A stretch of DNA of 64,000 nucleotides from Eledone cirrhosa. Lineage: Eukaryota. The notes beneath the pieces were generated by a model that did not search any database, was not told where the DNA came from, and saw only the letters and a list, made by a program, of their open reading frames with translations. Positions 14,274 to 58,141 of this stretch are shown piece by piece (positions within the stretch are counted from its first letter, which is position 1; every line of letters begins with the position of its first letter). The DNA lies in NCBI GenBank assembly GCA_964016885.1, contig OZ024747.1, positions 62,992,001 to 63,056,000 on the forward strand, written 5' to 3'. The translations under genes and the position numbers were made by a program.

Positions 14274-17200
14274 TTAAATGTACATGAGTCTGTGCAATAC
14301 TCAACCCCTTGTTTGGTAATTTGACAAACAGGCTGCCCCATTGATGAAACAACTGGAAGAAATATTGTTAGAACCTACAGAAGTCCAACATGAATCAACA
14401 CAACACAGTCAATTGGTTTTTAACCATCTCTGTTCCCAAGAGAGATGCTTTAACAGTTAACAAGTTAAACAAAACAGAAGAATTAGAAATAGAAATGTTA
14501 GTATATTCAGGTGCATCTTATATTCCAGGAATGTTGAAAACATGTCAAAACTAATATAAGAGCATTATACTCTGATATTATTATCTTAGATCTGAATGGA
14601 AATATAATAGAGAAGACTAGAAGACAACTTAATTTTATTTGATTTGTTTGTATTTCATGTAGATTAATATTTCTATGCATGCATAGGTGGAACCAAATAC
14701 AGCATGGTGGAATGGTAAAGGGGTTTGCTTTACAATCAAATGTTTCTAGGTTCAGCTTCGTTGCATGGCATTATAGGCAAGTGTCTTTTACCATAAACCT
14801 CAAATCAATCCAAGCCTCGTGTGGATGGAGACTGTATGGAAGCCCATGAACTGACTAGAAAGGCAGTAACTCCAAATAAGAACTATATTGAACGATAATT
14901 AGTTGCACTACACATGCCAGTATAGAAAATGTATGTAGAATGTTGATGATGATGATGGTGGTGGTTGTTCCTCCTCCACTAGTGATGGTATCTATCCACT
15001 TTTAGGATAGCAGAATAATTTTGTTGTTCTATCATAACAATTGGTTACAATAACATGAAATAATGGCTTCTGATTCAGGCAGAAACCCAACAATTTTTCA
15101 GGAGGGGAAAGTCGATTGATATAATGATGGTAAACCAGCAATGAGCTGACATTGCACTTTTCTTTTCATTTACTCTTTTATTTATTTCATTTATTCTTTA
15201 CTCCTTTATTTTGTTACTCTTTTTGGTTTCAATCTCCCAGAATTATGGTAAACCACCAATGAGCTGAAACAACACAGTCCCTTGTAATTTCTCTATATGT
15301 ATGAGAGTTTGGCAGAAAATAAATAACAATGAGAGATTGAGGGAGGGAAAGAGAGGAAGAAAGAGGAGAGTGAGAGATGTTCTGTAGTTCACTGGCTTAA
15401 CCTTAACCTACTACATGAAGTAACATTTTTTGCTCTCCGAATCATTCATCATAAAATGTTATGGGACACTTATATTTTATTTTTCTGTAGGAGTTTATAA
15501 AATGTAATCATGATTTTTAGTTTCATGTTTATAGAATTGGCTGTTCTTTATAATCAGTTGAGTTAATAACAGGAGGTTTACATTAGTTGTCATTCCCATT
15601 CCATACAGGTTTATTGCCATATCAAAGCATCAAAGTTTGCTTTGTGAATGTTTCATGTAAAGAACAACAAGTCTTTCATGTTTAATATTCAATGTTTAAT
15701 GTTCTGTTCATTGATTTCAATAGATCCATACCATCCAACCAGTTTAATCAACTGCAGGATGAAGTCTCAGAAAATATGTTTGTTCAAGTTCTACCTGTCC
15801 TTGTCGGTTGGGCGGAGTACAGTATTTAAAATCAGAATGCAGAAAGCCAGAATAGATACAGCAGAGAACATCTCATTTAATGCTCTAACTATTTATTCTG
15901 ACTCACAAGACATTGGTCAGCTAGATGCTACAGTAGAAGATACTTTCCTAAAACTGCCACAGAGTAAGATCAAACTTGAAATAACATGGCTGCAAAGTGA
16001 ACTTCTTAATCACACAGCCATGCCTGTGACTGATAAATAAATAATTAAATGACTAAGAATATATGGTAGTTGATCTAATGTACGTTATCAAATATCTTTT
16101 CATTCTCTCCAATGTATAATTTACATCCATGGTATTGATAAGTTAATTGAGGGATTTTTTGTGTAATCTAATATTTCTGAAACTAGGAGACTAGCTAAGT
16201 ACATTCATTAGAAGCTCTAGAATATTTAACTTTCACGTAATCTTAACACAACATGATTTATATAACACATTAACAGGCTGCATAGCTCAGGAAAGTAGGG
16301 AAACAGCAATATTAACTGACATTAAGTAATATAAGCACCAAGTTGTATATATATATTGCAACGAAACAAGGAATACTTAATGTGAAGGAACATAACGTAG
16401 TTTTTATAACTGTTAGCTATATGAATAACAGAAGAAAAAAGTAAACTACAGTATAGGCATATAAAAGCTGAACATTCCCTGATGGTATCAATGCTTCTTG
16501 GAACTACTTGGATGGAGTATTAATGTCGAAAGGTTCTAAAATCCTTAAAATACCCAACCATCTGTTGACAAAAGAATGTACCCACATTGAAAACTGTATG
16601 TAGAATTTTGGCTCCTAATTTAGGCTCAAGGTTACCAATTTTAGGGAGAGGGGTAAAATAATTTATATTGTATATGCTTTCATATATGCATTTATTATGA
16701 TTCCCATTATGTTAGTGCTGTCTGCCAGGAGCATGAAACAATCATAATATTACTTCACAATAACTGTTTCTGTTATTGTAGTGTGAGGGGTTGGCAGAAT
16801 TGGTAGAGCATCGAATAGAATGCCATTGGGCCATTTGTACTGGCCTTTTATATTCTGCCTTCAAATCCTACCAAAGTCAACTTTACCTTTCATCCTCTGA
16901 GGTTGATAAAATAAAGCACCAGTCAAATACTGGGGTTGGTTTAATCATTGATCTTGCCCTAAAAGATCTGAATGCCTTCTGCCTAATTTATTGATATCTA
17001 AATTAGGCAGAAGGCCATCAAATCTTTTAGGGCATTCGATTCTTTGACCAGCCAGCACATTGTCTCCTTGAGCAAGATGATTAATTGCTCCTGTCCACTT
17101 AGCTGAAGAAAAAGTGAGTACCAGCTATAACTGGAGCATAACCCCTGAAATGGACTTTTGTCCAGCTCAGAGAGACGTCAGGGAGACGTTTCATGATAAG

Positions 17201-28825: not shown

Positions 28826-28860
28826 TAAATATATATATATATAAATATATATATAACTAT

Positions 28861-29178
28861 ATCATCATCATCATCATCATCATCATTTTACGTCCGCTTT
28901 TCCCTGCTTGCAAGGGTGGGACGGGAACTGATACTGGCTTAATTTCTACAGCTGGATGCCCTTCCTAACACCAACCTCATTTACAGTGAGTGCTGGGTGC
29001 TTGTTTGCCGTGGCACCTCCACGACCACTTTGCAGTGGAATGATAGGGACCTCAATCCCTATCATCTCATTTCTACAGCTGAGTAAACTGGAACAATGTG
29101 AAATAAACAACACATCACCCGGTCCGAGAATTGAACTCACAACCTTTCGATTGCAAGGCCAATGCTCTAACCACTAAG
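28861..29178 (-). mobile_element. SINE family A with small internal deletion
   Basis: Reverse complement of 18562 family; (CAT)n at left; lies in TA microsatellite. Confidence 0.9.
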
Positions 29179-29300
29179 ATATATGCCTACATGCATATAT
29201 ATATATCTATCTATCTATCTATCTATCTATATCTATCTATCTATCTATATATCTATATATATATATCTATATATGTATATATATATATATATATTTATTT

Positions 29301-29822
29301 ATTGTCAGCAAATAAATGTATTAAAATAAGATTTTATTGTTTTAACACTTTGTATATATATATACAGTATATATATATATGAACAAATATCATTATAATA
29401 TCTAGCCTATGCTAGCATAGAGAAATGAAGATAAATGATTATAAATATATATATACCGATCGAATCAATCGACAAGTTCCCAGATTTCGTTCACTTACTG
29501 AGTTTCCATTGGTCTTCCCCTTACTGATACTATCTACAGGTTACAACTCCTGACAGAAAGAGCAACATGAAATAAAGTGTGTTGCTGAAGGACATAACAC
29601 ATTTCCCACTCAAGGAATTGAACTTGCAGCCTCATGTCTGTGAATCCAATTTTCTAACCACTAAGCCATGTGCCTTCACATATATTTATATATCCCATTG
29701 ACTTGTACTTCCTAATTATGATTATACTCTGGAGTAAACAGACCCACTTGTGTATTTCGTTAAGTGTTCTACCCTGAATATAAAAGTGATGGTGATAAAC
29801 TAACACGTACTCTAATTAATTA
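29301..29822 (+). repeat. Left arm of a ~520-bp inverted duplication
   Basis: Reverse complement of 31601-31980 plus 32328-32480, with scattered mismatches; contains an old SINE (about 29455-29680). Confidence 0.95.
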
Positions 29823-29848
29823 TATATATATAGTTATATATATATAGT

Positions 29849-29883
<35 letters not shown>

Positions 29884-30079
29884 GGATACTATTTATGGTT
29901 ATGTATATACTAAAACTTTTTATAGTTATGTATATTTTAAACCCTAAACAGTGAAGGTCAGTAATTTATTACTACCTTACTACCAGTAAGATAAATAGCT
30001 CAATGTAATAGCATCAGTTGTTCTACAGAGCAGTTATATAGAATTCACAAGAATCAAAGCTATGTTCAAAGCATTTATT

Positions 30080-30126
30080 CACTTACAATTGTTTCTTCCA
30101 AACCTAGGCTTGGAGTCTTCGGAGCA
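30080..30126 (-). ncRNA. Minimal type-I hammerhead ribozyme motif with CCGAAGA core, in a PLE-type relic (about 29875-30185)
   Basis: - strand tgct-CCGAAGA-ctccaagc-ctag-gtttggaa-GAAAC-aatt-GTA-agtg-AATAAA. Confidence 0.65.
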
Positions 30127-30221
30127 TTTTTCAATGTTTGTACACATAATTGACCTCCTTTCCAATGCAAGAGACATACAGATACATATATATATATATA
30201 TAACTATATATATATATATAT

Positions 30222-30286
<65 letters not shown>

Positions 30287-30327
30287 TAACAATTTATATA
30301 TATATATATATAACTATATATATATAC

Positions 30328-30925
30328 CTTGAATACTGTTGTCCACTGTGGTCTCCCCACACGAAACAAAGTATCATGAAACTTGAAGCTCCCCAAAGGG
30401 CAATCACGAACAAGATAGATGGCATGTCAGACCTTGACTACTGGGGTCGACTAGAAAAGCTGAAACTTTACTCACTCCAACGTCGCCGTGAGCATTATAT
30501 TATCTGCATGATGTGGAAAATTTTTCATCAGCACTGCCCAAATGATGTTGGCATCACCTTCAAAATACACCCAAGGCTTGGGCCCCGTGCTATCTGTCCC
30601 AAACAAAAATCTAAATCGCAACTCATAACAACAATACGGCACAATTATTTCACCTCAATTGGCCCTGCTCTCTTCAACATCACACCAGGACACGTCAAAA
30701 CAGAAACTGACCACACAAAATTCAAGAAGTCTTTGGACAAATTCCTCCAAGTAATCCCGGACAAACCACCCACACCTGGATATGTCTCCGCAAACAGTAA
30801 TTCCCTTCTCGAATGGGCCATGATGCCCAAATCCTGAATTGAAAGACTTCGCCAGGTGGTGCTATTAAATTAGACATGGCCTGGGCCAATACTGGCCAAA
30901 ACATTTAAAAGTTATTCAAAGTTAT
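30328..30925 (+). mobile_element. 5'-truncated CR1-like LINE (ORF2 C-terminus open 30328-30837, plus 3' UTR)
   Basis: [51 protein letters not shown]; no stops, so relatively young; inserted in (TA)n. Confidence 0.88.
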
Positions 30926-30972
30926 ATATATATATAACTATATATATATATATATAACTATATATATATATA

Positions 30973-31035
<63 letters not shown>

Positions 31036-31038
31036 CAG

Positions 31039-31354
31039 AATAGAAAGATTTGAATGGATACAGTTTAGTTGAAAGGAATTTATTGACACGTGTTTCTATA
31101 ACAGTTACATAACCTAAAACAGCTATCTACAAACTTTTAGTTATGCAGACATTCAATATTTCAATGTTATTATTTACTGTCATTTCATCAGAATCAGGAT
31201 TCTGATGAAATGACAGTAAATAATAACATTGAAATATTGAATGTCTGCATAACTAAAAGTTTGTAGATAGCTGTTTTAGGTTATGTAACTGTTATAGAAA
31301 CACGTGTCAATAAATTCCTTTCAACTAAACTGTATCCATTCAAATCTTTCTATT
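31039..31354. repeat. Perfect palindrome, 157-bp arms with 2-nt loop (PLE-type relic extending to about 31465)
   Basis: 31039-31195 is the reverse complement of 31198-31354; (TA)n on both sides of the element. Confidence 0.95.
31199..31311 (+). ncRNA. Hammerhead-like motif with extended stem II (mirror copy on - strand)
   Basis: att-CTGATGA (31202-31208)..88 nt closed by atgacagt/actgttat..GAAAC-acgt-GTC (31297-31308)-aat, overlapping AATAAA. Confidence 0.55.
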
Positions 31355-31600
31355 TTTCTCCGGATTACTTTTGGAACTACAACTGGAACCGTCGAGCAAA
31401 CTCTACGTGAGCTGATAATCTACTGTGTGTAATATTTATATTACAACACAACGGAAAATACTGTATATATATATATAACTATATATATATATAACTATAT
31501 ATATATATATAACTATATATATATATATATGTAACTATATATATATGCGGGTGAAGCTGCAGTAACTCCAAGTTACACTCCCTAGATATATATATATATA

Positions 31601-32480
31601 TAATTAATTAGAGTATGTGTTAGTTTATCACCATCACTTTTATATTCAGGGTAGAACACTTAACGAAATACACAAGTGGGTCTGTTTACTCCAGAGTATA
31701 ATCATAATTATGAAGTACAAGTCAATGGGATATATAAATATATGTGAAGGCACATGGCTTAGTGGTTAGAAAATTGGATTCACAGACATGAGGCTGCAAG
31801 TTCAATTCCTTGAGTGGGAAATGTGTTATGTCCTTCAGCAACACACTTTATTTCATGCTGCTCTTTCTGTCAGGAGTTGTAACCTGTAGATAGTATCAGT
31901 AAGGGGAAGACCAATGGAAGCTCAGCAGTAAGCGTATGAAATCTGGGAACTTGTCGATTGATTCGATCGATATATACATATATGGAGGCACATGGCTTAG
32001 TGGTTAGAGCATTGGTCTTGCAATCGAAAGGTTGTGAGTTCAATTCTCAGACCGGGTGATGTGTTGTTTCCTTGAGCAAGACACTTTATTTCACATTGCT
32101 CCAGTTTACTCAGCTGTAGAAATGAGATGATAGGACTGGGTTCCCTATCATTCCACTGCAAAGTGGAGGTGCCACGGCAAAAAAGCACCCAGCACTCACT
32201 GTAAATGAGGTTGGTGTTAGGAAGGGCATCCAGCTGTAGAAATCCAGCCAGAATCAGTTTCCGTCCCACCCTTGCAAGCAGGGAAAAGCGGACGTAAAAT
32301 GATGATGATGATGATGTTGATGATGATATATATTTATAATCATTTACCTTCATTTCTCTATGCTAGCATAGGCTAGATATTATAATGATATTTGTTCATA
32401 TATATATATATATATATATATATGTATACAAAGTGTTAAAACAATCAAATCTTAGTTTCATACATTTATTTGCTGACAAT
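31601..32480 (-). repeat. Right arm of the inverted duplication, interrupted by a SINE A
   Basis: Matches 29301-29822 once 31984-32327 is removed. Confidence 0.95.
31984..32327 (+). mobile_element. SINE family A, full length, present in the right arm only
   Basis: Empty site visible in left arm at about 29445-29456 (aaatatatatataccgatcg). Confidence 0.93.
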
Positions 32481-32517
32481 TGTTTCTTCCAGAGGGAAGT
32501 CTGGAATCATCGGAGCA
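32471..32517 (-). ncRNA. Minimal type-I hammerhead ribozyme motif with CCGATGA core
   Basis: - strand tgct-CCGATGA-ttccaga-cttccc-tctggaa-GAAAC-aatt-GTC-agca-AATAAA; stems I and II fully paired; palindromic stem III ACAATTGT. Confidence 0.75.
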
Positions 32518-32758
32518 TAGGGAACGTCTAAACAGGTGATTAAAATCCTAGTCGTTCAGAACATTTAGGTAGATACATAAGTGTTGTTAGTGTCATAGAC
32601 ATCATGTATAGAATCAGGAGTTAAAAAGATGTTATGCTTGAGAGAACACAATTACAAGGAGCGCTAGTTGAAAGTGTAAGTACTACCCTTCATATTTATA
32701 ATTGTAAATTAAACATATATAAGTATAAATATTTTATTACTATATATATATATATATA

Positions 32759-56995: not shown

Positions 56996-58141
56996 TGCCC
57001 TAGCACTTGCACTCCCACCAGAAATTCCCCTACAGACCCCACCCCTGGTTCCATGTCCCATCCCTTTACCCCTCATGTCTTGTATTTACATACTATTTAC
57101 CATGTATCATCTACCAATCACTACTCACCTTGTAAATTTCTTTTTCCATACTATACTTGTTAAGTGTATGTGTGCAAACAATTTTACAACTTCTATATGT
57201 GTGTGTATGTGTATGTGTGTGTGCATGCGTATGTATGTTATATACTGGCAAATATAGTAATAGTTTTCTAGAGAAAGGCACTAACTTTTCAACTTCTTAT
57301 CCTCCATCTTTTAAAATCTATGCCTTTATATTCATTTAGTAGTAAATAAAAAAAAAAAAATTAGTTTTGCATAGCTCTGAAAATATTCCTAATTATTTGC
57401 AGATAAATTCATCTTATTTGTTGAGCAAATATTTATGGAGGGAGAAAGAGAAAAAAATATATTCTGTTTGGTTGATAAAAAGCAAATATTTCATATGCTT
57501 GGTGGTATTGAATTGGTTGTTTGAAATGAAGGGAAATCATATTTCTAGAGCTACTCAATCAAATATATTACTGCTCTTATCAGTGCAAAATAATTCTCTT
57601 CCATTTTTTGTTATTCTGTTTTCACTTAAAGAAGAAATTCTATGCTCAGAGCTCTTAGATTCTAAGAATGTTAAGGTTATTTGAAATTAGTTTCCTTTTA
57701 CTAAGCACGAAGTTCTTATAATTTTAACATTTTTGTTAACACATTTCTAATGAAAAACACAGCTTATTATTTTAAATAATTAAAAAAATAAAGAATTTGG
57801 AGGTATTTATCATTATGAAGCTGGCATTTGGAACATAACTTAATGTTCTTACACAACTTATGATAAAATGTTTTTATATAAACATAAACAATTTTTTCCA
57901 TCACCCTGTGTATCAAATCCTTTTGTCTCTCTCTCTCCACTCAGACAAATTTGATTTATGAGGTTTATTTATATGAAGCCTGAAGAGGGGATAGGATCCC
58001 CAAGATTTTAAATGCCCAAGAAACACCATATGTTACAACGGTGCCCCTACAAATCCATCAAGATTTATGGGTACATATATACAAACAATTTAACTCTTAA
58101 CATTCTGTAATGTATTTGTGAGTGAATAGTAATAATAAAAT

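Follow-up and report, generated by a model that had tools for sequence, protein, structure and literature searches.

The inverted duplication and its surroundings

The window, that is, the whole stretch of 64,000 nucleotides of Eledone cirrhosa DNA analysed here, contains an inverted duplication of ~0.55 kb, which is a mirror image of the adjoining DNA and lies inside a TA tract rich in pieces of Penelope-like elements (PLEs). The features of the region are listed below, with A and B denoting the duplicated segments of host DNA and signed positions being counted from the predicted ribozyme cut.

28861..29190, minus strand: SINE X, tRNA-headed, an independent insertion outside the duplication (10/303 off the family majority; no non-majority column in common with the right copy; absent from the right copy's 41 best matches)
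29195..29292, no strand: TA/TCTA run, outer junction of the new copy
29293..29300, plus strand: ATTTATTT, reverse complement of 29310-29317; a short snap-back-like junction insert or a host TTTA remnant
29301..29355, plus strand: piece of an F2 PLE tail, running from -6 in hammerhead loop 3 to a 3′ end at +49
29380..29820, plus strand: duplicated host DNA, A (29380-29445) and B (29457-29820)
~29560-29694 and 29690-29822, plus strand: an old SINE and an old repeat, respectively, within or around the duplicated host DNA
29821..29880, plus strand: TA run with two AC-interrupted units reversed (29828, 29842); inner end of the copy
29881..30182, minus strand: F1 PLE pseudo-LTR fragment, hammerhead core at 30122, predicted cut 30089/30088, at or beside the fold axis (1074 exact tails)
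30329..30918, plus strand: older LINE 3′ fragment with an ORF, in the unduplicated loop (best matches 81-86% among sampled loci)
31039..31460, no strand: F3 PLE head-to-head insertion with a perfect 157-nt palindrome at 31039-31354 (family with an intact 785-aa ORF)
31464..31546, plus strand: AC-interrupted TA tract, forward; putative priming site
31547..31582, plus strand: 36-nt young repeat fragment, right arm only (190 matches within 1 mismatch)
31603..31970, minus strand: B, source copy
31985..32327, plus strand: young SINE X between A and B of the source arm (4/316 off the majority)
32335..32400, minus strand: A, source copy
32429..32680, minus strand: F2 PLE pseudo-LTR fragment, hammerhead 32517-32471, predicted cut 32475/32474 (138 exact tails)
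32679..32742, plus strand: inverted F2 3′ piece, head-to-head partner, with a TA run at its end

The left arm (29301-29842, plus strand) pairs with two blocks of the minus strand, 32480-32326 (155 nt, 93.5%) and 31981-31583 (401 nt, 96.3%). The likeness between the arms was about 98%, against at most 90% for any other scored genomic copy. The segment 29690-29822 was 98% like the partner arm and at most 90% like the others (40 scored of 604 candidates), and the start of B (query 160-260) was covered only by the two local copies among the 40 scored of 1569 candidates. On these scored copies, the arm was rejected as a dispersed mobile unit. The left and right copies of SINE X were discarded as parts of the rearrangement, since they have zero non-majority columns in common. 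The inverted duplication proposed in the original prediction is, by the difference between the arms and the other scored copies, real and local, and several details of its description were adjusted. The old SINE was copied together with host DNA, but the part at 29690-29822, taken for unique, is an old dispersed repeat; the arm ends in TA, as described, but another ~30-60 nt on its inner side, within the interrupted TA tract, also belong to the copy; and the arms converge over a spacer, given as ~1.8 kb, of 1742 nt between inner ends, but the right arm is split by two young insertions missing from the left one, a SINE of 350 nt (31985-32327) and a repeat fragment of 36 nt (31547-31582). The LINE fragment of the spacer, which we take to be CR1-like, has an ORF that gave no match in a Pfam search.

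The left arm starts as ATTGTC/AGC in loop 3 of the hammerhead 32517-32471, confirming the earlier placement in the stem III loop, and the outer end of the copy lies 3-6 nt before the predicted cut. Nucleotides upstream of the cut, previously counted as six, are indeed present, but they may be only three (GTC), because ATT equally fits the host TTTATT side. The copy includes a single 55-nt tail piece and has no recognisable target-site duplication. It is a local inverted copy in the element sense with flanking TA runs, as first described; it contains no intron, and a DNA or an RNA template would have given the same product.

PLE families and predicted hammerheads

The hammerheads of the window belong to pseudo-LTR pieces of three PLE families, F1, F2 and F3, which insert into (TA)n. 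Their ends were surveyed in anchors, meaning copies in which the 29 nt of tail from the cut onwards match exactly (90 F2 of 138; 100 F1 of 1074, all the latter from contig C1), a design that excluded copies starting downstream of the cut. The F2 family is scarce, with 138 exact tails in the 3.0-Gb assembly. The 3′ ends of F2 were placed at +39-50 or +165-183 in 89/90 anchors, and those of F1 (n=100) at +44-49 (51), +166-169 (5) and +208-213 (42). Two 3′ ends in the tail, head-to-head inverted partners and (TA)n targets are hallmarks known for PLEs (PMC8557442, PMC11167929), and the three families resemble hammerhead-bearing pseudo-LTR PLEs (PMC4209133, PMC8557442, PMC11167929) in these traits, in their type I motifs, in the 5′ truncation of the partners and in the GIY-YIG-type ORF upstream in F1, F2 and F3. 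In F3, an intact 785-aa ORF was found in tandem units of 3596 nt (L292, 1249-7202) with many identical copies, and its protein was 100% identical at 50 places among the matches listed; judging from its sequence, F3 is apparently an autonomous and active PLE. The Atlas neighbours of this ORF (0.96-0.99) were associated with HTH_animal, GIY-YIG (26-50% of members) and RVT_1, and Pfam and PDB searches with it returned no significant match. Remains of a related ORF were located upstream of 4 F1 anchors and in 5/17 long-F2 loci. A non-LTR retrozyme, defined by tandem monomers with a hammerhead in each (10.64898/2026.07.22.740005), was rejected, as the F1 and F2 copies were dispersed ORF-linked fragments.

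The motif at 32517-32471 is predicted to fold into a type I hammerhead whose helix III has 2 bp and whose loop AAUU is palindromic. When 62 F2 and 61 F1 copies were set in register, the helices were mostly paired; in helix II the two families differ by an A-U/G-C swap, and the cleavage triplets were GUC or GUA (NUH). The F1 and F2 cores read CCGAnGA, departing from CUGAnGA, and we take this C to stand at position 4 of the hammerhead numbering, unlike in described PLE hammerheads. With this core, three helices and an NUH triplet, the F1 and F2 motifs are type I hammerheads as far as sequence can tell, and the one first pointed out at 32471-32517 is a credible predicted PLE hammerhead, with helices mostly paired across the family copies. 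The Rfam hammerhead models gave no match to the motifs even at E<=10. As for the two further hammerheads ascribed to the spacer, the one at 30122-30089 (minus strand) is well formed, but in the palindrome 31039-31354, which has the core CUGAUGA..GAAA on both strands, helix I could not be placed. Single type I motifs with a short helix III are described as poor cleavers (PMC4209133).

Some additional observations were made on these elements. More pattern matches resembling the hammerhead core are found in the window at 6441-6408 (minus strand), 17103-17153 (plus strand) and 57980-58026 (plus strand), and a fragment like the PLE reverse transcriptase region (37%, E 4e-10) at 56990-56715 (minus strand). 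Three head-to-head PLE junctions (L170, 5956-6017; L175, 3938-4170; window, 31039-31354), of which two fall in hammerhead helix III, look as if the 3′ end of a cDNA had primed itself by fold-back. In L135 (2250-2290), the 3′ end of an inverted F3 copy lies within the hammerhead GAAA/helix III and is followed by TA, a possible third priming site.

Element ends relative to the predicted cut

Among the 190 anchors, the hammerhead was passed by 181 and a start exactly at the cut was found once. The 5′ ends lying within 10 nt of the cut comprised 6/90 in F2 (-9, -6, -6, -5, -2, 0) and 3/100 in F1 (-4, -4, -3), so that the pooled count was 9/190, against the 5.0 predicted by the frequency of ends from -10 to -190 (p=0.068). 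Ends at -6, as in the window copy, were those of L158 and L175, and two partner pieces start at +4. The alignments of four of the 100 F1 anchors (L224, L269, L277, L284) stop in the loop of helix II (-21), and at least two of these look like divergence from the reference.

Since nine ends were near the cut, one was at it and 181 were past it, helix III may be a weak stopping place of the PLE hammerhead, and cleavage is not the rule in the sampled ends. This is in line with the available text of PMC11167929, according to which uncut RNA is the dominant substrate, no reads ending at the cut are reported and cleavage is dispensable in vitro. The earlier claim that ribozyme cleavage bounds the copy was thus not borne out: the 3-6 nt upstream of the cut were retained, 1/190 copies start at the cut, and ribozyme cutting probably did not set the outer end of the window copy. 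A transduced product whose 5′ end is the cleavage site would likewise differ from the copy, which starts at -6 to -3.

Flank duplications at other loci

A sample of 140 loci of 10 kb (80 F2, 60 F1), each chosen for holding a PLE, was surveyed and yielded, outside the window, 18 inverted, 19 direct and 12 palindromic entries. Moreover, 160 tail flanks were tested for local copies, and 12 loci plus 14 others were viewed closely. Two TA-centred inverted duplications of host DNA were verified. In L185 (7243-9530), arms of 630 nt have 625 matches and 5 substitutions, with at most 88% elsewhere among 40 scored copies, and one copy is TA-flanked on both sides; in L227 (5284-5817), a host inverted duplication centred on TA has 2 genomic matches only. 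No hammerhead core was present within 150 nt of the outer ends in either of them. A similar hammerhead-free, TA-centred arrangement in L124 (2275-4665) is a candidate from the locus view alone. The original prediction had called for a read-through RNA or cDNA; a need for RNA is not supported, given the same architecture at L185 and L227 in the absence of a hammerhead, and one tract providing both the priming site and the target in the window. With two verified cases and two candidates in 1.4 Mb of PLE-containing loci, such duplications recur, they create long hairpin-forming sequences, and they may be a common class of structural variant in this genome.

Two other local duplications include the F2 hammerhead region and fit either a DNA or an RNA template. 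In L177 (5270-7746), the F2 tail, the TA tract and a downstream LINE piece are duplicated in tandem, and the repeated unit has its start within the hammerhead core (-37); in L133, a tail-to-tail copy extends past the ribozyme and ends ~700 family bases upstream, with a private deletion in common. Among the nine loci with a 5′ end near the cut, a small sample with a 10-kb reach, none has a duplicated flank at the element. Other cases were set aside: L153 was rejected as a hammerhead-free analogue, its arms being a dispersed repeat, and many inverted pairs, such as those of L135, L151, L279 and L282, look like divergent inverted-repeat PLE insertions rather than duplications of host DNA. When 193 downstream flanks were compared between loci, the matches were overlapping loci or apparent nested repeats, L271/L274 aside. 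These two F1 loci, 1.2 Mb apart on C1, agree in their ORF remains and, at 99.6% identity, in their downstream flank, through either segmental duplication or transduction.

Origin of the duplication

The AC-interrupted TA units were the most informative feature of the locus; they were rare elsewhere (2 sites vs 2097 TA runs in the 140 sampled loci). At this locus they are forward at 28851 and at nine places in 30198-31529, and reversed only at 29828 and 29842. By this distribution, the copy includes the start of the central tract, the fold axis falls at 29853-30198, and the reversed units place priming and insertion in the same TA tract, as DNA fold-back requires. Fold-back templated inversions at breaks have been described (PMC11724301, PMC3907307), and TA repeats are reported as break sites repaired by MMEJ (PMC13645644). 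Other features of the locus agree with such a process: the inverted copy adjoins its source with an unduplicated spacer between them, the self-complementary TA tract is an inverted homology common to the break and priming sites, and at the far junction ATT overlaps and ATTTATTT and AAATAAAT form a hairpin of 8 bp, features that in AT-rich DNA may be due to chance. This hairpin resembles one at an ordinary F2 5′ end in L170 and, as a property of the sequence, does not tell which polymerase was involved.

The geometry, the reversed microsatellite units, the TA runs on both sides and the later insertions in the source arm are observed, and the duplication probably arose by fold-back templated insertion at a (TA)n break. 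A break at ~29860-30190, perhaps made by cruciform cleavage or a PLE endonuclease, would have been followed by resection, and the TA 3′ end would have paired with the tract 31464-31546 on its own strand. The resulting loop would have held the older LINE piece and measured ~0.7-0.9 kb, a size suggested by the greater age of that piece (best matches 81-86% among sampled loci). Synthesis through B, A and the F2 tail would then have halted between -6 and -3, shortly before reaching the helix II hairpin of the hammerhead. Either ATT microhomology or a short run of templated bases would have served to rejoin the new end to the left TA end. The insertions of F1, F3, SINE X and the 36-nt piece would date from about the same time or later. 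Any part played by the hammerhead would have been limited to that of a structural stop and would not have involved cleavage; among the non-TA DNA hairpins along the copying path, its helix II is the most stable (-5.3 kcal/mol), but the stalling argument is weak because a hairpin of -4.8 kcal/mol in A was passed. Against fold-back, the inserts known from yeast are much shorter (5-34, up to ~150 bp) than the ~550 nt seen here, the copy ends in the 10-nt interval where PLE cDNA 5′ ends are mildly over-represented (9/190 vs 5.0, p=0.068), the junction hairpin is like that of an ordinary F2 insertion (L170), the tail has diverged more between the arms than A+B, the F2 hammerhead region takes part in the duplications of L133 and L177, and the verified hammerhead-free analogues are two only, from loci chosen for their PLEs.

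The involvement of PLE reverse transcriptase is a possible but doubtful alternative, in which the enzyme would have copied in cis a read-through RNA of the element at 32680-32429, with a TA end priming on (UA)n, a stop in hammerhead helix III (by a pause on uncut RNA, or at a cut bridged by a few bases) and joining of the cDNA in the adjacent tract. The copy has the element sense and is TA-flanked as PLE insertions are, its -6 end recurs in L158 and L175, and an active PLE machinery is present (the intact 785-aa ORF with many identical copies). PMC3846280 proposes self-priming by read-through PLE transcripts, a sense template giving tail-to-tail repeats, and the ages of the segments would permit the duplication and the F2 insertion to be coeval. 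However, the copy contains 3-6 nt upstream of the cut and 1/190 copies start there, the PLE 3′ ends in the sample are internal to the tail, a local duplication at the element is absent from all nine near-cut loci, and no dispersed A+B copy was present among the 40 scored. Furthermore, the process would need a nascent transcript acting at its own locus, and it fits poorly with the dominance of uncut RNA and the lack of reads ending at the cut in the available text of PMC11167929, as well as with the poor cleavage of single type I motifs with a short helix III (PMC4209133). Were the RNA route true, it would give the PLE hammerhead an in vivo role, with the ribozyme fold setting the breakpoint of a structural variant, and would represent a cis form of PLE transduction. 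Its generalization is unlikely: a (TA)n end cut by an endonuclease would prime PLE reverse transcriptase on a read-through transcript still being made, the enzyme would write tail-to-tail inverted host copies in cis and stop in helix III, and PLE activity at TA tracts would be a general source of the TA-centred host palindromes in this genome.

The divergence between segments bears on whether the left tail shares the origin of A and B. The arms differ by 3/52 substitutions in the tail (4/55 with a fourth at the tail end), 1 in A and 7/364 in B, four of the latter clustered with a 3-nt gap; the tail is thus more diverged than A+B (3/52 or 4/55 vs 8/426; Fisher p 0.11 or 0.04), which keeps alive a model with an independent tail. 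In this model, the left tail would be a separate 5′-truncated F2 insertion, or the second half of one event, and A+B would have been copied by template switch or gene conversion, through a switch between two inverted tails and TA runs or later homogenisation. The left and right tails have two private changes each and none in common, and TA-flanked F2 pieces starting near -5 occur alone (L170). Nevertheless, no common change would be expected in 55 nt at these ages, and two independent F2 copies 3 kb apart would be unlikely, because the family has only 138 exact tails in 3 Gb. In addition, a single pooled rate of 1.4% fits the arms as well as the deviations from the family majority of F2 (6/252), SINE X (4/316) and F1 (4/299), so that the duplication and the F2 insertion may be coeval or successive; the separate tail is improbable. 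An assembly artefact, with two haplotypes set in inverted order, is far less credible, close to negligible. A 219-nt contig of run X17 shows left-arm alleles only over 31920-31935 and departs from the right arm at 31981, and no read spanning both arms was found, but contigs can drop variants, the junction bases and the reversed microsatellite units are peculiar to the left copy, two element insertions distinguish the arms and the flanks continue on both sides. The X17 contig is consistent with a SINE-free junction, and X17 is possibly the assembly's own source. The contigs of public runs were swamped by repeats and none spans the locus; those from runs of two other organisms, equally repeat-swamped, contained no orthologous allele, an absence that carries no weight.

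Relation to known systems

If produced by fold-back repair, the duplication of the window is a known sort of rearrangement. Like the local fold-back inversions of yeast (PMC11724301) and human (PMC3907307, which describes inverted duplications with a disomic spacer), it has an inverted copy beside the break, an unduplicated loop, inverted homology at the fold and a short microhomology or insert at the far junction. Unlike them, its size of ~550 nt falls between the yeast inserts of 5-150 bp (PMC11724301) and the megabase human events (PMC3907307), its homology is a long self-complementary (TA)n, it is fixed in a germline assembly and there is no terminal deletion. The copying of element-adjoining host sequence together with part of the element is also seen in the capture of host DNA by PLEs (Adineta vaga, PMC3846280; PMC6431247) and in L1 3′ transduction; in the accounts available, however, such sequences end up far from their source, with target-site duplications and a frame of pseudo-LTRs or poly(A), whereas the window copy stays in the adjacent microsatellite. 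It also differs from usual PLE insertions in being tail-to-tail, with host DNA 3′ of the tail. Among the titles, abstract openings and open-licence full texts consulted, no description of cis PLE transduction was found. What is new at this locus is that two units of the central TA tract, with their rare AC interruption, are present in the copy in reversed orientation.
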